Source: a virus. Taken from it: DNA of 64,000 nucleotides. Positions 18,085-28,914 of the stretch are shown here, piece by piece. Where the stretch lies: the UHGV virus genome UHGV-2113617; one strand, 5' to 3'. The notes under the pieces are model-generated. The model saw only the letters and a list, made by a program, of their open reading frames with translations. It did not search any database and had not been told where the DNA came from. Numbering within the stretch: position 1 is the first letter of the stretch; each line of letters opens with the position of its first letter. The position numbers were made by a program, and so were the translations under genes.

Positions 18085-18092
18085 TATAAATA
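18085..18092 (+). promoter_or_regulatory. late promoter TATAAATA for gene 34
   Basis: Exact TATAAATA ~35 nt upstream of the gene 34 ATG; AGGAG SD at 18112. Confidence 0.6.
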
Positions 18093-18126: not shown

Positions 18127-21100
18127 ATGGCCGAGATTAAAAGAAAGTTCAGAGCAGAAGACGGTCTGGACGCAGGTGGCGATAAAATAATCAACGTAGC
18201 TTTAGCTGATCGTACCGTAGGAACTGACGGTGTTAACGTTGATTACTTAATTCAAGAAAACACAGTTCAACAATATGATCCAACTCGTGGATATTTAAAA
18301 GATTTTGTAATCATTTATAATAATCGTTTTTGGGCAGCAACGGATAATATTCCAAAACCTGCTGGAAGTTTTAATAGAATTCGTTGGAAAGCATTGCGTA
18401 CTGATGCCGTATATACAACCGTATCATCTGGACCGTATCAATTAAAATCCGGAGAAGCAATTTCAGTAGATACATCAGTTGGTAATGACATTGAGTTTAA
18501 TTTACCACCTTCTCCGCTTGATGGAGAAACCGTAATAATTCAAGATATTGGTGGAAAACCTGGTATAAATCAGGTTAAAATAAATTCTTCAAATCAGAGT
18601 ATTATTAATTTTAGAGGTGAACAGGTACGTTCAGTTCTAATGACTCATCCAAAGTCACAAATGATATTCATTTTTAATAATCGTTTGTGGCAAATGTATG
18701 TTGCTGATTATAGCAGAGAAGCTGCGATTGTTACTCCATCGACTGCATATCAAGCACAATCTAATGATTTTATCGTGCGTAGATTTACTTCCGCTGCGCC
18801 GATTAATATTAAACTTCCGAGATTTGCTAATCATGGCGATATTATTAATTTCGTTGATTTAGATAAATTAAATCCACTTTATCATACAATTGTCACGACA
18901 TATGATGAAACGACTTCAGTACAAGAAGTTGGAACTCATTCTATTGAAGGCCGTACATCGATTGACGGTTTCTTGATGTTTGATGATAATGAAAAATTGT
19001 GGAGATTGTTTGACGGGGATAGTAAAGCACGTTTACGCATTATAACAACTAATTCTAATATTCGTCCAAATGAAGAAGTTATGGTATTTGGTGCGAATAA
19101 CGGAACAACCCAAACAATTGAACTTCAGCTTCCAACCGATATTTCCATTGGTGATACTGTTAAAATTTCCATGAATTACATGAGAAAAGGACAAACAGTT
19201 AAAATCAAAGCTGCCGGTGAAGATAAAATTGCTTCTTCAGTTCAATTGCTGCAATTCCCAAAACGCTCAGAATATCCACCTGAAGCTGAATGGGTGACTG
19301 TCCAAGAATTAGTTTTCAATGGTGAAACTAATTATGTTCCGGTTTTACAACTTGCTTATATAGAAGATTCTGACGGAAAATACTGGGTTGTACAACAAAA
19401 CGTTCCAACAGTTGAAAGAGTTGATTCTTTAAATGATTCTACTAGAGCAAGATTAGGCGTAATTGCTTTAGCTACACAAGCTCAAGCAAATGCTGATTTA
19501 GAAAATTCTCCACAAAAAGAATTAGCAATTACACCAGAAACATTAGCTAATCGTACTGCCACAGAAACTCGTAGAGGTATCGCAAGAATAGCAACTACTG
19601 CTCAAGTGAATCAGAACACCACATTCTCTTTTGCTGATGATATTATCATCACTCCTAAAAAGCTGAATGAAAGAACTGCCACAGAAACTCGTAGAGGCGT
19701 TGCTGAAATTGCCACACAGCAAGAAACTAACGCAGGTACTGATGATACTACAATCATCACTCCTAAAAAGCTTCAAGCTCGTCAAGGTTCTGAATCATTA
19801 TCTGGTATTGTAACCTTTGTATCTACTGCAGGAGCTACTCCAGCTTCTAGTCGTGAATTAAATGGTACAAATGTTTATAATAAAAACACTAATAATTTAG
19901 TTGTTTCGCCTAAAGCTTTGGATCAGTATAAAGCTACTCCAACCCAACAAGGTGCAGTAATTTTAGCAGTTGAAAGTGAAGTAATTGCTGGGCAGAGTCA
20001 AGAAGGATGGGCAAATGCGGTTGTAACGCCAGAAACGTTACATAAAAAGACATCAACTGATGCAAGAATTGGTTTAATTGAAATTGCTACGCAAAGTGAA
20101 GTTAATACAGGAACTGATTATACTCGTGCAGTCACTCCTAAAACTTTAAATGACCGTAAAGCGACTGAAAGTTTAAGTGGTATAGCTGAAATTGCTACAC
20201 AAGTTGAATTCGACGCAGGCGTCGACGATACTCGTATCTCTACACCATTAAAAATTAAAACCAGATTTAATAGTACTGATCGTACTTCTGTTGTTGCTCT
20301 ATCTGGATTAGTTGAATCAGGAACTCTCTGGGACCATTATACCCTTAATATTCTTGAAGCAAATGAGACACAGCGTGGTACACTTCGTGTAGCTACACAA
20401 GTTGAAGCTGCTGCAGGAACATTAGATAATGTTCTAATAACTCCTAAAAAGCTTTTAGGTACTAAATCTACTGAAGCACAGGAAGGCGTTATTAAAGTTG
20501 CAACTCGGTCCGAAACTGTAGCTGGAACGTCAGCAAATACTGCTGTATCCCCAAAAAATTTAAAATGGATTGTGCAGAGTGAACCTACTTGGGCAGCTAC
20601 TACCCTGGTAAGAGGTTTTGTTAAAACTTCATCTGGTTCAATTACATTCGTTGGTAATGATACAGTTGGTTCTACGCAGGACTTAGAACTATATGAGAAA
20701 AATAACTATGCAGTATCACCATATGAATTAAACCGCGTATTAGCAAATTATTTGCCGTTAAAAGCAAAAGCTGTAGATAGTAATTTATTAGATGGTTTAG
20801 ATTCACTCCAGTTCATTCGTAGGGATATTGCGCAGACGGTTAATGGTTCACTAACCTTAACACAGCAAACGAATCTGAGTGCCCCTCTTGTATCATCTAG
20901 TACTGCTACGTTCGGTGGATCAGTTTCGGCAAATAGTACATTAACTATTTCTAATACTGGAACAGCAACTCGTCTGATTTTTGAGAAAGGACCTCAAACT
21001 GGGACGAACCCAGCTCAAACGATGACAGTCAGAGTGTGGGGAAATCAATTCAGCGGTGAATCGGACACAACACGTTCTACTGTATTTGAAGTTAGTGATG

Positions 21101-21996
21101 AAACGTCTAGTCACTTTTATTCTCAGCGCAATAAAACTGGTAATATAACATTTAATATAAACGGTACAGTAACGCCGATAAATGTGAATGCTTCAGGAAC
21201 ATTGAATGCGAATGGCGTTGCAACATTTGGTAGTTCAGTTACTGCTAATGGCGAACTTATCAGTAAATCATCGAATGCTTTCAGAGCAATAAATGGTAAT
21301 TATGGATTCTTTATTCGTAATGATGGTACTAACACCTATTTTATGCTTACTGCATCTGGTGATCAGACCGGTGGATTTAATGGATTACGTCCTTTAACTA
21401 TTAATAATGCATCTGGTCAAGTAACGATTGGTGAAAGCTTAATCATTGCCAAAGGTGCTACTATAAGTTCAGGTGGTTTAACTGTTAACTCGAGAATTCG
21501 TTCTCAGGGTACTAAAACTGCTGACCTATACACCCGTGCGCCAACATCTGATACTGTAGGATTCTGGTCAATCGATATTAATGATTCAGCCACTTATAAC
21601 CAGTTCCCGGGTTATTTTAAGATGGTTGAAAAAACTAATGAAGTGACTGGGCTTCCATACTTAGAACGTGGCGAAGAAGTTAAATCTCCTGGTACATTGA
21701 CTCAGTTTGGTAACACGCTTGATTCGCTTTACCAAGATTGGATTACTTATCCAACGACTCCAGAAGCACGTACCACTCGCTGGACACGTACATGGCAGAA
21801 AACTAAAAACTCTTGGTCAAGTTTTGTTCAGGTATTTGACGGAGGTAACCCTCCTCAACCTTCAGATATAGGAGCGATCCCATCTGATAATGGAATAATA
21901 GGTAATCTTACTATTCGCGATTTCTTGCGAATTGGTAATGTTCGCATTATTCCTGACCCAGTGAATAAAACTGTTAAATTTGAGTGGATTGAATAA
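18127..21996 (+). CDS. 34: long tail fiber proximal subunit gp34
   Basis: 1289 aa, same length as T4 gp34; internal periodic repeats (TPKKL, RTATETRRG). Confidence 0.95.
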   Translation: MAEIKRKFRAEDGLDAGGDKIINVALADRTVGTDGVNVDYLIQENTVQQYDPTRGYLKDFVIIYNNRFWAATDNIPKPAGSFNRIRWKALRTDAVYTTVSSGPYQLKSGEAISVDTSVGNDIEFNLPPSPLDGETVIIQDIGGKPGINQVKINSSNQSIINFRGEQVRSVLMTHPKSQMIFIFNNRLWQMYVADYSREAAIVTPSTAYQAQSNDFIVRRFTSAAPINIKLPRFANHGDIINFVDLDKLNPLYHTIVTTYDETTSVQEVGTHSIEGRTSIDGFLMFDDNEKLWRLFDGDSKARLRIITTNSNIRPNEEVMVFGANNGTTQTIELQLPTDISIGDTVKISMNYMRKGQTVKIKAAGEDKIASSVQLLQFPKRSEYPPEAEWVTVQELVFNGETNYVPVLQLAYIEDSDGKYWVVQQNVPTVERVDSLNDSTRARLGVIALATQAQANADLENSPQKELAITPETLANRTATETRRGIARIATTAQVNQNTTFSFADDIIITPKKLNERTATETRRGVAEIATQQETNAGTDDTTIITPKKLQARQGSESLSGIVTFVSTAGATPASSRELNGTNVYNKNTNNLVVSPKALDQYKATPTQQGAVILAVESEVIAGQSQEGWANAVVTPETLHKKTSTDARIGLIEIATQSEVNTGTDYTRAVTPKTLNDRKATESLSGIAEIATQVEFDAGVDDTRISTPLKIKTRFNSTDRTSVVALSGLVESGTLWDHYTLNILEANETQRGTLRVATQVEAAAGTLDNVLITPKKLLGTKSTEAQEGVIKVATRSETVAGTSANTAVSPKNLKWIVQSEPTWAATTLVRGFVKTSSGSITFVGNDTVGSTQDLELYEKNNYAVSPYELNRVLANYLPLKAKAVDSNLLDGLDSLQFIRRDIAQTVNGSLTLTQQTNLSAPLVSSSTATFGGSVSANSTLTISNTGTATRLIFEKGPQTGTNPAQTMTVRVWGNQFSGESDTTRSTVFEVSDETSSHFYSQRNKTGNITFNINGTVTPINVNASGTLNANGVATFGSSVTANGELISKSSNAFRAINGNYGFFIRNDGTNTYFMLTASGDQTGGFNGLRPLTINNASGQVTIGESLIIAKGATISSGGLTVNSRIRSQGTKTADLYTRAPTSDTVGFWSIDINDSATYNQFPGYFKMVEKTNEVTGLPYLERGEEVKSPGTLTQFGNTLDSLYQDWITYPTTPEARTTRWTRTWQKTKNSWSSFVQVFDGGNPPQPSDIGAIPSDNGIIGNLTIRDFLRIGNVRIIPDPVNKTVKFEWIE

Positions 21997-22004
21997 GAGG
22001 TATT

Positions 22005-23120
22005 ATGGAAAAATTTATGGCAGAGTTTGGACAAGGATATGTCCAAACGCCATTTTTATCGGAAAGCAATTCAGTAAGATATAAAATAAGCATAGCGGGT
22101 TCTTGCCCGCTTTCTACAGCAGGACCATATGTTAAATTTCAGGATAATCCTATCGGAAGTCAAACGTTCGACGCAGGTCTTCATTTAAGAGTTTTTGACC
22201 CTTCTACAGGAGCATTAGTTGATAGTAAGTCATATGCTTTTTCTACTTCAAATAATACTACATCAGCTGCTTTTGTTAGTTTCATGAATTCTTTGTCAAA
22301 CAATAGACTTGTTGCTATATTAACTAGTGGAAAGGTTAATTTTCCTCCTGAAGTGGTATCTTGGTTAAGGGGAGCAGGAACTTCAGTTTTTCCATCAGAT
22401 TCCGTATTGTCAAGATTTGACGTATCATATGCTGCTTTTTATACTTCTTCTAAAAGAGCTATTGCATTAGAGCATGTTAAACTAAGTAATAGAAAAAGCA
22501 CAGATGATTATCAAACTATTTTAGATGTTGTATTTGATAGTTTAGAAGACGTCGGAGCTACGGGATTTCCTAAAAGAACATATGAAAGTGTCGAGCAATT
22601 TATGTCAGCGGTTGGTGGAACTAATAACGAAATTGCGCGATTACCAACTTCAGCTGCTATAAGTAAACTATCTGATTATAATTTAATTCCTGGTGATGTT
22701 CTTTATCTTAAAGCACAGTTATATGCTGATGCTGATTTACTTGATCTTGGAACTACAAATATATCCATTCGTTTTTATGATGCATCAAATGGATATATTT
22801 CTTCAACACAGGCTGAGTTTACTGGACAAGCTGGATCTTGGGAATTAAAGGAAGATTATGTAGTTGTTCCTGAAAATGCAGTCGGATTTACTATATATGC
22901 GCAGAGAACTGCTCAAGCTGGTCAAGGCGGTATGAGGAATTTAAGTTTTTCTGAAGTGTCAAGAAATGGTGGCATTTCAAAACCTGCCGAATTTGGCGTC
23001 AACGGTATTCGTGTTAATTATGTCTGTGAATCGGCTTCACCTCCAGATATAATGGTACTTCCTACACAAGCCTCTTCTAAAACTGGCAAAGTGTTTGGGC
23101 AAGAATTTAGAGAAGTTTAA
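22005..23120 (+). CDS. 35: long tail fiber hinge connector gp35
   Basis: 371 aa; position and size as T4 gp35. Confidence 0.85.
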   Translation: MEKFMAEFGQGYVQTPFLSESNSVRYKISIAGSCPLSTAGPYVKFQDNPIGSQTFDAGLHLRVFDPSTGALVDSKSYAFSTSNNTTSAAFVSFMNSLSNNRLVAILTSGKVNFPPEVVSWLRGAGTSVFPSDSVLSRFDVSYAAFYTSSKRAIALEHVKLSNRKSTDDYQTILDVVFDSLEDVGATGFPKRTYESVEQFMSAVGGTNNEIARLPTSAAISKLSDYNLIPGDVLYLKAQLYADADLLDLGTTNISIRFYDASNGYISSTQAEFTGQAGSWELKEDYVVVPENAVGFTIYAQRTAQAGQGGMRNLSFSEVSRNGGISKPAEFGVNGIRVNYVCESASPPDIMVLPTQASSKTGKVFGQEFREV

Positions 23121-23125
23121 ACTGA

Positions 23126-23151
23126 GGGAGCCTTCGGGTTCCCTTTTTCTT
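23126..23151 (+). terminator. terminator-like CUUCGG hairpin after gene 35
   Basis: GGGAGCC-TTCG-GGTTCCC followed by TTTTTCTTT. Confidence 0.55.
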
Positions 23152-23159
23152 TATAAATA
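23152..23159 (+). promoter_or_regulatory. late promoter TATAAATA for gene 36
   Basis: Exact TATAAATA ~25 nt upstream of the gene 36 ATG. Confidence 0.55.
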
Positions 23160-23182
23160 ATATTAAAATAAAGGGGCATATA

Positions 23183-23872
23183 ATGGCTGATTTAAAAGTA
23201 GGTTCAACTGTAGGTGGATCTGTCATTTGGCATCAAGGAAATTTTCCATTGAATTCAGCCGGTGACGATGTACTCTACAAATCATTTAAAATATATTCAG
23301 AATATAATAAACCGCAGGCAGCTGATAACGATTTCGTTTCTAAAGCTAATGGTGGCACAAAGTCTGGAGGTTTCCAAAAAGAAGTAGAATTTAAAGAAGG
23401 CGTTAAGATTTCTGCAACGTTTTCTCGTGGTTCAGACCTGAATGGGTTATATTCTGGCAATGGAGATGGAGCTTCCAGAGAAAAAGCTAACATGGATTTA
23501 CATTCATGGTACGGCATTGGTATTTGGAACACATGCACAGGTGATGGGATCCAGGGACGCACAATCTGGTTTAATGCCAGGCGTGGTACAATTGAAACAG
23601 TTGGCGATATTGTTTCGGGCCGACAAGTTATTTCTAATGCTTCAGTACCGACCGGCCCAGCACACTTAACTCGCAAAGATTATGTCGATGGAGCAATAAA
23701 TACTGTTACGACAAATGCAAACTCTAGAGTGTTACGATCTGGTGACACTATGACAGGTAATTTAACTGCGCCAAACCTTTTTTCACAGAATCCTGCATCT
23801 CAACCTTCACACGTTCCACGATTTGACCAAATCGTGATTAAGGATTCTGTTCAAGATTTCGGCTATTATTAA
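23183..23872 (+). CDS. 36: long tail fiber distal connector gp36
   Basis: 229 aa; position between 35 and 37. Confidence 0.85.
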
Positions 23873-23880
23873 GAGGACTT

Positions 23881-26800
23881 ATGGCTACTTTAAAACAAAT
23901 ACAATTTAAAAGAAGCAAAACTGCAGGTCAACTTCCTGCTGCTTCAGTATTAGCCGAAGGTGAATTGGCTATTAATTTAAAAGATAAAACAATTTTCACA
24001 AAAGATGACTCAGGCGATGTTATAGAATTAGGTTTAAAATATGGAGGAACAATTGATGGTTCTTTAACTGTTAATGGAAATATAATTGGAAATTTAACAG
24101 GTAACGCTGCAACTGCAACGAAATTAAAAACAGCACGAAAAATTAATGGTATATCCTTTGATGGGTCAAAAGATATCACGCTAACTCCATCTGACATAAA
24201 TGTCAATAGCACAACGTTTATAAAAAATAACGGCGAATTACCTGTTGATGCTAATTTAGATACGTATGGGCCTGTTGAAGAATATCTTGGAGTTTGGTCG
24301 AAATCTACTTCAACAAATGCGCAACCGGCAAATAAATTCCCAGAAGAAAATGCCGTAGGTGTACTAGAAGTATTTGTGACCGGTCAATTTGCTGGTACTC
24401 AGAGATATACTGTAAGATCTGGTAACGTATATGTTCGATCATTGTCTGCTAAATGGAACGGTGTTAACGGTCCGTGGGGAGTTTGGCGTAATGTTCAAGC
24501 GTCAACTCGTCCACTTTCACAAACGATTGACCTTGATAGTTTGGGAGAATTAGAACATTGCGGCTTATGGCGAAATAGTTCAAGTTCTATCGCATCGTTT
24601 GACCGTCATTATCCAGAAGAAGGAGCAGCCGCACAAGGATTTTTGGAAATTTTTGAGGGTGGTTTATACACAAGAACTCAACGTTATACAACTAGATTTG
24701 GTGTTGTTTATACTCGCTGTCTTGCTGCTGCATGGGATGCTTCCGCGCCTAAATGGGGACCGTGGCAACAAGTCGGTAATGTCACACCAGCGACTTTCTA
24801 TGACGGAAACCTGAATGATTTTAAAACTCCTGGGTTATATAATATTTTAGGCACTGATGCCGTTATTAATTGTCCTACAGGCGAAGGTTTACCAGCCGTT
24901 ATTGTTGGTTTGCTGGAAGTTAAACAGCGTGCTTCTGGTGGTGCTATTTTCCAAAAATTTACTACTGCCGGAACAGGTGCAACTACTCGCGGACGTATTT
25001 TTGAGCGTGCATATACTAATGGTACTTGGGGTACATGGAACGAAGTATATACATCTTACTCTCTGCCAATTACTTTGGGTATGGGTGGTATTAAAACTCA
25101 ATTAGCGGAGCTAGATTGGCAAACATTTGATTTTGTTCCTGGTAGTATGTTTAGCGTTCCTTTGAACAAAATAAAGAACATGCCAGCAAATATGGATTGG
25201 GGTACAATTGACGGAAACTTGGTTATGTTTTCTGTCGGTCCTAGCGAACATACTAGCACAGGGCGTACTGTTCAGGTTTGGCGTGGTACTGTATCCCAGA
25301 CAAACTACCGTTATTTTGTCGTTCGTGTATTCGGTAATTCAGGAAATAGAACTTGCACAGTTCGTCGCGTTGTTCTTGAAGATGGTCGCCACAAATGGAC
25401 AGCGCAACAAGATTTTAATGGCGCAGTTAACTTCGGTGCTCCTACCAATTTTAACTCTACTGTTAACCTTAATAACACTACCACTTTTAAAACAGAAGTT
25501 AAATTTCGCTCATTGAATGCATTCCGTATGTATGGCGGAAAATTTGGTACAATTTTCCGTAATGATGGAGAGAGTCTTTATATTCTTTCTACCGACGAAG
25601 ATGACCAAGATGGAAACTTTAATACAAATAGACCTTTCCGTTATGAATTAAGAACTGGCGATGTTACTTTAGGTGGTGCTAGTGGTGCTAACGTTTTAAA
25701 ATTAAAACGTGATTCTCTCACCGCATTTTTTGGCGGTGATATTAACATGAAAGGCTTGCTGACTTTTGATGCCGGACGTTTAGGATCACGAGATTATTTT
25801 AAATTTAACCATTGGGGTGATAGTAATAATGCTCGTGATAACATCATCCAGTTAGAAGATAGTCAAGGCGCCCATTTTTCCACTGAACGTACTTTAGCGA
25901 CAGGTGCAATTAAAACTCGTTTCTTTGGCGAAACATTCACTGATGGTACATTATACCTAAATCAGATGAATAATAGCTCTGAACGATTCTCTATTAATAA
26001 TTGGGGAAATTCAGAAGTTGGTCGCGAGGCAGTGATGGAAGTCGGTGATTCCAAAGGTTATCACTTCTTTACTGCACGCAGGACAGATAACAGTTTGATG
26101 TTTGATGTTGCTGGCGATTTTACTGTGCATGGATCTTCCGGGATTACTATCAAAACCTCTACTGGTGCTCGCCACATCTGGTTTAGAGATGATAGCGAAT
26201 CGGAAAAGGCTGTTATCTGGGCTACAGATGATGGTATTTTACATATGCGAAATAATCATGGGGGTTCATTTAGTCATCACTTCCAGGGTGCAATGATTAA
26301 AGTGGGAGAGCGTGTTCCTTATGCCGGAGATCGAGGGCTTATTCGCGGTGAAGTTTCTGGTGGTGCTTATGTGAATTGGAGAGATCGCCCTGCTGGTTTG
26401 TTGCTTGACTGTCAACAAAGCGTTGATAGTGCTCATGCTATTTGGAAAGCGGTTGATTGGGGGCGTAACTACATCGCTGCTCTGGACGTTCATTGTCCCG
26501 GTGATAGTAATAATACTGCGGCAGCGGTTCTTCATGTTCAGGGTGCTGATTATCAATTCCATGCAAGTGGAGAATTTCATGCCACTGGTAACGGAAACTT
26601 TAACGATGTTTATATTCGTTCCGATCGTCGCCTCAAAGAAAACATCGAAGATTATATAGGAAATGCAACTGATTTAATCGGTAAACTGAAAGTTAAAACC
26701 TACGATAAAGTTAAATCATTATCCGACCGTGAAATTATCGGTCATGAGATCGGCATTATCGCGCAGGATTTACAAGAAATATTACCAGAAGCGATTAATA

Positions 26801-26973
26801 TTTCGAAAATTGGCAATCTTGATAAACCAGACGAAGTTCTGACAATTTCTAACTCCGCTGTGAATGCTCTTTTAATTAAGGCCATTCAGGAAATGAGTGA
26901 AGAAATTAAAGAATTAAAAACGCCTTTCTTCACTAAAATTGCTCGCAAAATTGGTAAATACTTTAAATTCTAA
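23881..26973 (+). CDS. 37: long tail fiber distal subunit gp37 with C-terminal intramolecular chaperone domain
   Basis: 1030 aa; last ~117 aa (from [14 protein letters not shown] at 26620) resemble self-cleaving chaperone domains of phage fibres. Confidence 0.9.
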
Positions 26974-26977
26974 TAAC

Positions 26978-26994
26978 AAGGGGCAATGCCCCTT
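26978..26994 (+). promoter_or_regulatory. intercistronic stem-loop between genes 37 and 38
   Basis: AAGGGGC-aat-GCCCCTT, not followed by a T-run; may modulate coupling or mRNA stability. Confidence 0.3.
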
Positions 26995-27006
26995 TGGAGA
27001 TAAATT

Positions 27007-27789
27007 ATGGCAGTAGTTGGTGTTCCTGGTTGGATTGGTAGTTCATCCGTAAATGAAACAGGACAACGATGGATGAGTCAAGCGGCTGGTCAATTAAGAT
27101 TAGGTGTTCCTTGCTGGATGAGTCAATTTGCAGGTCGCTCAAGAGAAATTATTCATACACTTGGAGCAGATCATAACTTCAATGGTCAATGGTTCCGAGA
27201 TAGGTGTTTTGAGGCAGGTAGTACACCTATAGTGTTTAATATCACTGGAGATTTAGTATCATATTCTAAAGATGTTCCTTTATTCTTCATGTACGGAGAT
27301 ACACCGAATGAATATGTTCAACTGAATATACATGGTGTAACGATGTATGGCCGTGGCGGTAATGGCGGTAGCAATAGTCCTGGCTCAGCTGGGGGTCATT
27401 GTATTCAAAATGATATTGGTGGGAGACTAAGAATTAATAATGGCGGAGCTATTGCTGGCGGCGGTGGCGGCGGCGGTGGCGGATATTATTCTCCTTTTTC
27501 ACAAATGAGATTGACCTTTGGCGGTGGTGGCGGTCGTCCGTTTGGCGCGCCGGGCGGATCTATTGATATGCAATCAGGAGCAACTGCTGGTACTATTTCT
27601 GCACCAGGCTCAGGGTCTGTGAACGGTATCTATAGCGGCGGGTCTGGTGGTGAAGTTGGCTCCGCAGGAGGTAGATGTAATATTCGTGGTCAAGGATATG
27701 AATACGATGGCGGTGCTGCTGGTTATGCCGTCATAGGGTCTACACCGACATGGCAAAACGTTGGAGCAATATATGGTCCAAGAGTATAA
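27007..27789 (+). CDS. 38: T2-type receptor-recognising adhesin gp38
   Basis: 260 aa; N-terminus [40 protein letters not shown]; glycine-rich motifs alternating with variable segments. Confidence 0.85.
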
Positions 27790-27819
27790 TTTGAATAAAT
27801 ATCCTTAAAAGGAGGGTCT

Positions 27820-28476
27820 ATGGCAGCACCTAGAATATCATTTTCGCCCTCTGATATTCTGTTGGGTGTTCTAGATCGCTTGTTCAAAGATAACGCTACC
27901 GGGAATGTTCTTGCTTCCCGGGTAGCTGTCGTAATTCTTTTATTTATGATGGCGATTGTTTGGTATAGGGGAGATAGTTTCTTTGAGTACTATAAGCAAT
28001 CAAAGTATGAAACATACAGTGAAATTATTGAAAAGGAAAGAAATGCACGCTTTGAATCTGTCGCCCTGGAACAACTCCAGATAGTTCATATATCATCTGA
28101 GGCAGACTTTAGTGCGGTGTATTCTTTCCGCCCTAAAAACTTAAACTATTTTGTTGATATTATAGCATATGAAGGAAAATTACCTTCAACAATAAGTGAA
28201 AAAACACTTGGAGGATATCCTGTTGATAAAACTATGGATGAATATACAGTTCATTTAAATGGACGTCATTATTATTCCGACTCAAAATTTGCTTTTTTAC
28301 CAACTAAAAAGCCTACTCCCGAAATAAATTACATGTACAGTTGTCCATATTTCAATTTGGATAATATCTATGCTGGAACAATAACCATGTACTGGTATAG
28401 AAATGATCATATAAGTAATGACCGCCTTGAATCAATATGTGCTCAGGCGGCCAGAATATTAGGAAGGGCTAAATAA
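27820..28476 (+). CDS. t: holin T
   Basis: 218 aa; matches recalled T4 holin incl. single TM segment near N-terminus. Confidence 0.95.
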   Translation: MAAPRISFSPSDILLGVLDRLFKDNATGNVLASRVAVVILLFMMAIVWYRGDSFFEYYKQSKYETYSEIIEKERNARFESVALEQLQIVHISSEADFSAVYSFRPKNLNYFVDIIAYEGKLPSTISEKTLGGYPVDKTMDEYTVHLNGRHYYSDSKFAFLPTKKPTPEINYMYSCPYFNLDNIYAGTITMYWYRNDHISNDRLESICAQAARILGRAK

Positions 28477-28749
28477 TTATTTGTTCGTATACATCTCTAG
28501 ATATCGATATACACCCTCAAAACCCTCGTTGAATTCGTCGATGAGGGTTTTCTTATCTTCTTGAGTTAATTCAGAAACAATTTTACGGAATGAATTCTGA
28601 TTTAACTTTCTACCTTCATGCGTTACTCCAATCTCATTCAGAAATGCAATAAAATTAGCACGATTCTCAACAATATCTTCTCTGGAAAATTTAATCAAAA
28701 TAGACGCAACAGTAATAATTTCACGAACTGTATCAATGTTTTTATTCAT
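28477..28749 (-). CDS. asiA: anti-sigma70 factor AsiA
   Basis: 90 aa; matches recalled T4 AsiA. Confidence 0.95.
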   Translation of the reverse strand: MNKNIDTVREIITVASILIKFSREDIVENRANFIAFLNEIGVTHEGRKLNQNSFRKIVSELTQEDKKTLIDEFNEGFEGVYRYLEMYTNK

Positions 28750-28761
28750 TAACTATACCAC

Positions 28762-28914
28762 TCAATTAGCTGACTTTATTATAATATCATCAGACACTTG
28801 ATTTGTAAACTGGTCTGTGTTATTTTCTTCAAAAATTTTTTCTACGAATTCCTTGAACGACTCACGTTCCTGAGCTACATTATGCTCGATTACCTTTTCA
28901 AGATTATGACTCAT
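28762..28914 (-). CDS. small hypothetical protein
   Basis: 50 aa ORF below the track cutoff; ATG overlaps stop of upstream ORF (ATGA). Confidence 0.3.
   Translation of the reverse strand: MSHNLEKVIEHNVAQERESFKEFVEKIFEENNTDQFTNQVSDDIIIKSAN

Follow-up and report, generated by a model that had tools for sequence, protein, structure and literature searches.

The 64,000-nt stretch of the virus genome UHGV-2113617 analyzed here (the window) carries two genes, 37 and 38, that we read with high, if not complete, confidence as the distal long-tail-fibre module of a Tequatrovirus in its adhesin-capped form, in which the shaft protein gp37 would cut off its own C-terminal S74 domain, gp38 would cap the resulting tip, and Tsx would most likely be the receptor. 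The original prediction, made from the letters of the sequence, had described this region as a T2-type host-range cassette composed of gp37 with a C-terminal self-cleaving chaperone domain and a glycine-rich gp38 adhesin of 260 aa, and the list of open reading frames (ORFs) reproduces its coordinates for both genes and the length of gp38 to the base. We found no evidence contradicting the adhesin-capped architecture.

The gp38 adhesin and its variable loops

Profile and structure searches place gp38 among the tail-fibre tip adhesins. PHROGs names it 'tail fiber protein; host specificity' (E 2e-112), the Pfam family GP38 (PF05268) matches residues 47-260 over profile positions 1-218 of 218 (E 1.2e-71, 241.4 bits against a cut-off of 25), and Gp38_N (PF21721) matches residues 1-42 (E 1.3e-19, 70.4 bits against a cut-off of 25). 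Among solved structures, residues 38-260 match the gp38 of phage PP01 (9V85, E 1.8e-79) and residues 5-257 match that of phage S16 (6F45_D, E 3.6e-50), while BLASTP against T4 gp38 revealed no similarity (E = 2.0); together these results bear out the earlier claim that gp38 is an adhesin and not the T4 assembly chaperone. NCBIfam contains no model for gp37 or gp38.

Glycine makes up 23.8% of gp38 overall and 33% of residues 113-260, with runs at residues 115-121 (GRGGNGG), 151-159 (G9), 172-176 (G5), 211-215 (GGSGG) and 235-239 (GGAAG). From these runs and an alignment of 11 sequences we drew our own boundaries, after the scheme of Trojet 2011 (PMC3157838), for five glycine-rich motifs (GRMs; residues 115-121, 151-159, 172-180, 211-222 and 235-239) and the four hypervariable segments (HVSs) listed in the table. 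Across the 11 phages, 6-9 of the 7-9 residues in the motifs are conserved, and the intervening segments fall to as few as 0-9 identities in distant alleles, in keeping with the predicted arrangement of glycine-rich motifs separating variable segments. In gp38 crystal structures these GRM and HVS regions form a polyglycine-II sandwich with protruding loops (PMC12892980), and the further claim that the variable loops set receptor specificity has been established experimentally (PMC3157838; bioRxiv 10.64898/2026.04.02.716166).

Trp9, Trp22 and Trp37, in the N-terminal attachment domain, are invariant in an alignment of eight sequences, and by analogy with studied homologues residues 1-46 would dock on the gp37 tip (PMC7917993, PMC12892980). 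The solved S16 complex (6F45) comprises three chains of gp37 and one of gp38, which fits a monomer-on-trimer model, and one copy of gp38 would likewise sit on the trimeric gp37 tip here, in a 3:1 ratio. A single-sequence AlphaFold2 model of gp38 had a mean predicted local distance difference test score (pLDDT) of 28.6. As a separate observation, the gp38 of Shigella phage CM8 has Leu at the otherwise invariant position of Trp37, and CM8 is still a working Tsx-dependent phage.

Predicted self-cleavage at the gp37 C-terminus

The last 117 aa of gp37 form an intramolecular chaperone domain of the Peptidase_S74 family (PF13884, 'chaperone of endosialidase'; E 1.1e-13, 51.7 bits against a cut-off of 22), with profile positions 1-56 of 58 aligned to residues 914-971 and profile position 1 falling on Ser914. 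The original prediction had proposed a domain of about 117 aa at 26620-26970 resembling intramolecular chaperones or autoproteases; its limits agree with a start at Ser914 (codon TCC) and an end directly before the TAA stop, and its identity is upheld by the Peptidase_S74 match from Ser914, the alignment to S16 gp37 and the match at the cleavage site. The domain opens with DVYIR/SDRRLK, where the slash marks its start, and Ser914 is followed five residues later by Lys919, a spacing that would be that of the catalytic dyad in S74 domains of the endosialidase C-terminal intramolecular chaperone (CIMCD) type. The motif VY[IV]RSDxR[LV]K is conserved in the gp37 proteins of T6, T2, RB5, YUEEL01, FL15 and RB69, and the sequences that precede it are largely unrelated among those proteins. 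When the last 143 aa of gp37 were compared with solved structures, they matched S16 gp37 (6F45 chain A, E 2.9e-7), with DVYIR/SDRRLK aligned to DLNVS/SDRRIK; the same search returned a weak match to the human MYRF auto-processing domain (7dc3, E 0.006), a known relative of the S74 domain family.

Work on related fibres indicates what this domain would do. In S16, cleavage of gp37 falls between the two serines of DLNVS^SDRRIKK, and cleavage after DVYIR has been predicted in related Tequatroviruses, including the fPS phages, where it would leave a flat gp37 tip on which the gp38 tryptophans dock (PMC7917993). The gp37 proteins of T2 and T6 have been reported as processed (PMC3157838), and a gp37 class with S74 in place of the T4 needle is already a defined structural class in RBPseg (PMC12143355). 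By analogy, the gp37 of the window is predicted to cleave itself between Arg913 and Ser914 and release 117 aa, after which the DVYIR strand would carry gp38, a role transferred from published work (PMC7917993). In our control comparisons, an S74 domain was present at the C-termini of T6 and T2 gp37 and absent from T4 gp37, which carries Collar and fibre repeats.

Allele and likely receptor

The alignment of gp38 with known adhesins that the original prediction suggested was run with T2, T6 and modern phages with proven receptors in place of K3 and Ox2, and it points to Tsx as the likely receptor. The gp38 of the window is 99.6% identical to that of YUEEL01, for which we found no receptor, 98.5% to RB5 (Tsx), 96.9% to fPS-65 (lipopolysaccharide [LPS] inner-core heptose, on Yersinia), 96.5% to CM8 (Tsx), 95% to WilhelmHis (Tsx), 93.5% to FL15 (Tsx) and 93.1% to T6 (Tsx); identity then falls to 88.8% for EV240 (OmpA), 60.4% for PaulHMueller (OmpA), 60.0% for RB69 (OmpF) and 51.5% for T2 (FadL). 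The label 'T2-type' therefore stands as the name of an architecture class and fails as the name of an allele, the protein being T6/RB5-like (93-98.5% identity, against 51.5% to T2), and we assign the cassette by its sequence to the T6/RB5 allele within that class.

The assignments of the closest relatives come from several studies, with Tsx dependence reported for T6 and for RB3, RB5, RB6, RB7 and RB14 (PMC3157838), Tsx use for FL15 (PMC12032242) and Tsx use with complementation for WilhelmHis (PMC8594841); CM8 uses Tsx and EV240 uses OmpA, and swapping gp38 from HVS2 onward switches the receptor (bioRxiv 10.64898/2026.04.02.716166). All 12 residues of HVS2 are shared with four proven Tsx binders (RB5, CM8, FL15 and WilhelmHis) and 11 of the 12 with T6, as against 3 of 12 with EV240 and 0-2 of 12 with PaulHMueller, RB69 and T2 (0-1 for the OmpF and FadL binders among them). 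HVS3 shares 26-29 of its 30 residues with Tsx binders (26 with T6) versus 6-20 with the others (17 with EV240), and at the three positions where phage PST, with its dual specificity, differs from T6 (Q167, M168 and G208 in T6 numbering) the window's gp38 has the T6 residue each time. Because its loops are those of the T6/RB5 allele and match proven Tsx binders, we predict that the phage most likely uses the nucleoside channel Tsx as its primary receptor on E. coli.

Proposed mechanism and alternatives

To the genes, domains, motifs, homologies and allele assignment established here, the study of homologues would add the cleavage, the 3:1 stoichiometry, the docking and the binding of Tsx. In the resulting model, gp37 would be made late in infection as a 1030-aa precursor whose C-terminal 117 aa, of the Peptidase_S74 kind, would nucleate trimerisation and folding of the shaft and then cut themselves off between Arg913 and Ser914 by means of Ser914 and Lys919. 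Cleavage would expose a flat trimeric tip ending in DVYIR, on which one copy of gp38 would dock by way of residues 1-46, the N-terminal domain with the tryptophans. The remainder of gp38 would fold into a beta-helix and a polyglycine-II sandwich built from the five glycine-rich motifs, and would present four hypervariable loops for binding to an outer-membrane protein.

A different receptor is the alternative that we weigh most seriously, while still judging it improbable: the architecture would be the same, and the Tyr231 allele of gp38 would shift or widen specificity, for example towards OmpA, another porin, a Tsx loop variant or LPS. Several observations count against a simple assignment to Tsx. 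Tyr231, in HVS4, is the only residue of HVS2-HVS4 that differs from every proven Tsx binder compared, all of which have Ser, and it aligns with Tyr230 of PP01 gp38, which cross-links to OmpC (PMC12892980); PP01 numbering was mapped through the loop-A (W119-I124) and loop-D (N204-Y209) anchors of that study, both of which fit. Single HVS substitutions can switch the receptor, as Q206L does from OmpF to OmpW (bioRxiv 10.64898/2026.04.02.716166), and in phage PST three substitutions in a T6 background add OmpA and Yersinia recognition (PMC3157838). Tyr231 is common to YUEEL01, OES_C-1/2 and TOPO13, and our literature search found no receptor assignment for any of these carriers. Finally, fPS-65 behaves differently on Yersinia, where it is reported to need LPS inner-core heptose (PMC7917993), although this need may instead reflect a second adsorption step by the short tail fibres. 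Weighing in favor of Tsx, the other three variable segments are identical or nearly identical to those of five independent proven Tsx binders, OmpA-type EV240 differs by replacement of whole segments from HVS2 onwards and not by one residue, and closely related gp38 proteins share a receptor in published phylogenies. Because one substitution can be enough for a switch, we reserve a small part of our confidence for a shifted or widened specificity, and we consider it a long shot that the Tyr231 allele changes which Tsx variants are usable or brings in a second receptor, which would make the clade that carries it a natural one-residue host-range variant of the T6-type adhesin.

Two further readings would alter the architecture itself. 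The S74-like domain could be a non-cleaving relic, with gp37 remaining full length in the virion and gp38 binding elsewhere or serving mainly as an assembly factor; cleavage of this particular gp37 is predicted from its relatives, and both the older literature and a more recent study (PMC7917993) describe a chaperone role for T2-type gp38 as well. We find this very unlikely, as Ser914 and Lys919 are intact, the whole motif around them is conserved across distant gp37 proteins, the S74 score lies well above the Pfam cut-off, the S16 homologue is cleaved at the aligned site, and processing has been reported for the gp37 of T2 and T6. The cassette could also be of the T4 type, in which gp37 carries the receptor-binding tip and gp38 is an assembly chaperone that is released. 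Gene order and gene names are shared with T4, and nothing else speaks for this reading, which is refuted by the BLASTP result for gp38, by comparison with T4 gp37 and by domain content: gp37 here has neither the Collar domain nor the fibre repeats found towards the C-terminus of T4 gp37, and its significant likeness to T4 gp37 is limited to residues 1-66 and a few shaft motifs. We accordingly give the T4-type reading a vanishingly small probability and retain the adhesin-capped fibre with a self-cleaving gp37.

Shaft domains and mosaic structure of gp37

PHROG 1699 (E 2e-233) names gp37 'long tail fiber protein distal subunit'. Its amino acid identity to the gp37 proteins of RB5, SHFML-11 and others is 90.7-93.7%, the upper figure being the best full-length match in the phage collection; over the whole cassette, the closest nucleotide sequence is that of YUEEL01 (94.2%). 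The conserved N-terminal region, residues 1-66, is presumed to form the junction with gp36. Beyond it lie three modules in tandem that recur about every 92 aa (residues 126-206, 218-299 and 311-390), the first two of which are clearly homologous (Smith-Waterman score 160, z = 28 over shuffles); the third is more weakly related (z = 4.4 to the first and 2.1 to the second). Self-BLASTP of gp37 did not report these repeats, which emerged from Smith-Waterman comparison with shuffles. They match no Pfam family, but a profile built from all three finds a tail fibre chain of known structure (9b45_2, gp47; E 1.9e-4), with a weak second match to the R-pyocin fibre 6cl5 (E 0.36), suggesting that they are probably knob-like shaft domains; an AlphaFold2 model of the first repeat, with the three repeats as alignment, had a pLDDT of 48.1. 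Residues 521-587 are homologous to the C-terminal trimerisation domain of gp34 and also match the gp34 structures 4uxe and 5nxf.

An identity profile in bins of 50 aa against T6, RB5, YUEEL01 and T2 reveals how the shaft is assembled. Residues 1-650 are T6-like, at 88-100% per bin, and identity to T6 then drops to 68% in residues 651-700 and 10-26% in residues 701-900, where the two distal shafts are largely unrelated. Over residues 651-900 every bin is instead 86-100% identical to RB5 and YUEEL01. Neither of these relatives matches throughout: residues 201-400 reach only 68-82% identity to RB5, this stretch being T6/YUEEL01-like here, and residues 501-600 reach only 60-74% to YUEEL01, with a gap. 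The protein thus reads as a recombinant mosaic of known segments, a new combination and not a new kind, because the shuffling of segments is documented behavior of this locus. The RB5-type distal shaft (residues 651-913) takes the place of the T6-type one below the same adhesin and may itself contribute to host range, a weaker possibility than an effect of Tyr231.

The exact gp37 and gp38 sequences already exist in public assemblies, for example in an ENA metagenome contig with the same gene neighborhood. Databases also list near-identical proteins under the names 'peptidase S74 [Bacillus cereus]' (PJZ22120.1) and 'receptor-recognizing protein [Bacillus cereus]' (PJZ22119.1); their 171.5-kb contig almost certainly represents a T-even coliphage genome that came along in a Bacillus assembly, rather than Bacillus genes. 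Within gene 37 there are eight alternative-frame or antisense ORFs of 63-104 aa, which we considered as overlapping genes and rejected: stop codons interrupt most of them in at least one relative and the few others stay open only in near-identical sequences, and since none is kept open in diverged relatives we see no evidence for overlapping genes in gene 37.

The spacer between genes 37 and 38

Gene 37 ends in a double stop, TAA TAA, and the 33-nt spacer that follows (26974-27006) contains a stem-loop, AAGGGGC-AAT-GCCCCTT, directly after the double stop and abutting the Shine-Dalgarno sequence of gene 38. A stem occurs at the same place in T6, RB5, FL15 and YUEEL01, and T2, PaulHMueller and RB69 keep it through a different sequence with a UUCG loop. 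Its stability does not exceed that of shuffled sequence (z = -0.86), and its sole support is that the stem is kept while its letters change between phages. The fPS-65 record has a terminator annotated at this position, and possible roles of the element are partial termination, protection of an RNA end or control of gene 38 translation. Intergenic hairpins of this kind have long been known in T4.

Gene order and transcription layout

The ORF list and Pfam matches give the canonical T-even order 34-35-36-37-38-t-asiA in the window, and the annotated order is the same in T6, T2, RB5 and T4. A 25-kb piece of the window adjoining the fibre genes has 96-97% nucleotide identity to many Tequatrovirus genomes and is identical to none. 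A terminator-like UUCG hairpin directly after gene 35 precedes a T4-type late-promoter box, TATAAATA, before gene 36, and a second such box lies before gene 34, an arrangement that matches the T4 late-transcription layout. Genes 36, 37, 38 and t look like one late transcription unit, with the box before gene 36 as its probable start, a reading that we infer from the position of the box, as the number of TATAAATA boxes in the whole window (6 found against 9.6 expected) is not above chance. A sigma-70 promoter scan of 23000-28800 returned fewer sites than expected by chance, and tRNA and Rfam gathering scans of the whole window found none.

Two neighboring proteins merit separate mention. At 229 aa, gp36 is a longer variant than in T6, RB5 and YUEEL01 (216 aa), T2 (219 aa) and T4 (221 aa), and gene 36 of EV240 is of equal length to that of the window (690 nt). 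Residues 58-112 of gp35 pass the gathering threshold of the Pfam family ILEI (PF15711, 'interleukin-like EMT inducer'; E 5e-8), and the gp35 proteins of T4, T6 and T2 give the same match, making it a general property of T-even gp35; a literature search on gp35 and the long tail fibre returned no paper containing 'FAM3', and the term ILEI itself was not searched for.

Table. Positions in the window of the genes, protein regions and nucleic acid elements of the fibre locus
Feature	Position	Strand	Size	Basis or remark
Late-promoter box TATAAATA, T4 type	18085-18092	+		42 nt upstream of gene 34 ATG
Gene 34	18127-21996	+	1289 aa	
Gene 35 (hinge protein gp35)	22005-23120	+		
UUCG hairpin, terminator-like	23124-23145	+		
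Late-promoter box TATAAATA, T4 type	23152-23159	+		31 nt upstream of gene 36 ATG, after the hairpin
Gene 36 (proximal part of distal half-fibre, joined by gp37)	23183-23872	+	229 aa	Pfam Phage_T4_gp36, E 1.3e-24
Gene 37 (long tail fibre distal subunit precursor)	23881-26973	+	1030 aa	ATG start
gp37 1-66, conserved N-terminal region	23881-24078	+		77% identity to T4 gp37 (BLASTP E 1e-27)
gp37 126-390, three tandem modules	24256-25050	+		Smith-Waterman
gp37 521-587, gp34 trimerisation-domain homologue	25441-25641	+		Pfam Gp34_trimer, E 4.4e-13
gp37 651-913, distal shaft of RB5/YUEEL01 type	25831-26619	+		Identity profile in 50-aa bins
gp37 tip strand DVYIR, end of distal shaft	26605-26619	+		
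gp37 914-1030, Peptidase_S74 domain	26620-26970	+	117 aa	Pfam, S16 alignment
Ser914 codon	26620-26622	+		
Lys919 codon	26635-26637	+		
Gene 37 stop TAA	26971-26973	+		
Stem-loop after gene 37	26978-26994	+	7-bp stem	
Shine-Dalgarno GGAG of gene 38	26996-26999	+		7 nt before ATG
Gene 38 (tail-fibre tip adhesin)	27007-27789	+	260 aa	ATG start; Pfam GP38 and Gp38_N
gp38 1-46, N-terminal attachment domain	27007-27144	+		Pfam Gp38_N 1-42
gp38 115-239, receptor-binding region	27349-27723	+		Five glycine-rich motifs, four hypervariable segments
gp38 HVS1, residues 122-150				
gp38 HVS2, residues 160-171	27484-27519	+		
gp38 HVS3, residues 181-210	27547-27636	+		
gp38 HVS4, residues 223-234	27673-27708	+		
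gp38 Tyr231 codon (HVS4)	27697-27699	+		
Gene t (holin)	27820-28476	+	218 aa	Pfam Phage_holin_T, E 2.7e-116; closes late unit
asiA	28477-28749	-		Convergent with gene t

Comparison with known systems

Genetic work described the adhesin-capped fibre tip from the 1980s on, solved structures followed in 2018 and 2026, and it is now used for sequence-based prediction of receptors and for engineering of phage host range. The system had been described in detail before, genetically, structurally and for prediction, and to it this analysis adds a T6/RB5 allele that probably binds Tsx, a predicted cleavage site between Arg913 and Ser914, a mosaic map of gp37 and the caveat of Tyr231. Its practical value lies in annotation, as a Tequatrovirus with a T6/RB5-type gp38 that is probably Tsx-dependent; if the phage were used for therapy or typing, loss of tsx would be the expected first route to resistance.

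Among individual phages, RB5 (RB3 group, Tequatrovirus RB3) has gp37 and gp38 proteins of the same lengths, 1030 and 260 aa, identical HVS1 and HVS2, and a gp37 that agrees in its type of distal shaft and of S74 domain (88-98% per bin from residue 601 on, 90-98% in residues 651-900); it differs in residues 201-400 of gp37, as described above, and in gp38 at T73A, S202A, S213G and Y231S. YUEEL01, and with it TOPO13 and OES_C-1/2, is the best nucleotide match for the full cassette, with an S74 domain that is 100% identical and a gp38 that shares Tyr231 and is one residue apart (T246A), whereas its gp37 has 1025 aa and departs in residues 501-600. T6, the archetype of this gp38 subtype, has the same N-terminal subtype, the T6-like first 650 residues of gp37, the DVYIR strand and the S74 domain, but its gp37 has 994 aa and a different distal shaft, and its S74 domain is 56-58% identical in the first 100 aa.

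The solved prototype is S16 (6F45), with a trimeric gp37 tip, one gp38 and a chaperone cleaved before SDRRIK; it belongs to another genus, binds Salmonella OmpC, and has other hypervariable loops and a gp37 that cannot be aligned upstream of the tip. PP01 gp38 (9V85) is the closest solved structure by sequence, with a nearly identical beta-helix and glycine-rich motifs, and it differs in loops B to E and in binding OmpC of E. coli O157. T2 likewise has S74 at the end of its gp37 (residues 1243-1300 of 1341) and a GP38 adhesin, of 262 aa, but it uses FadL, its gp38 is of another N-terminal subtype with unrelated HVS2-4, and its gp37 is 311 aa longer and mostly unalignable. T4, finally, has the same genomic position and gene order and a similar gp37 N-terminus, and it departs from the module described here at the tip, where its gp37 forms its own receptor-binding end with Collar (residues 816-863) and Phage_fiber domains and without S74, and where its 183-aa gp38 is an unrelated assembly chaperone.

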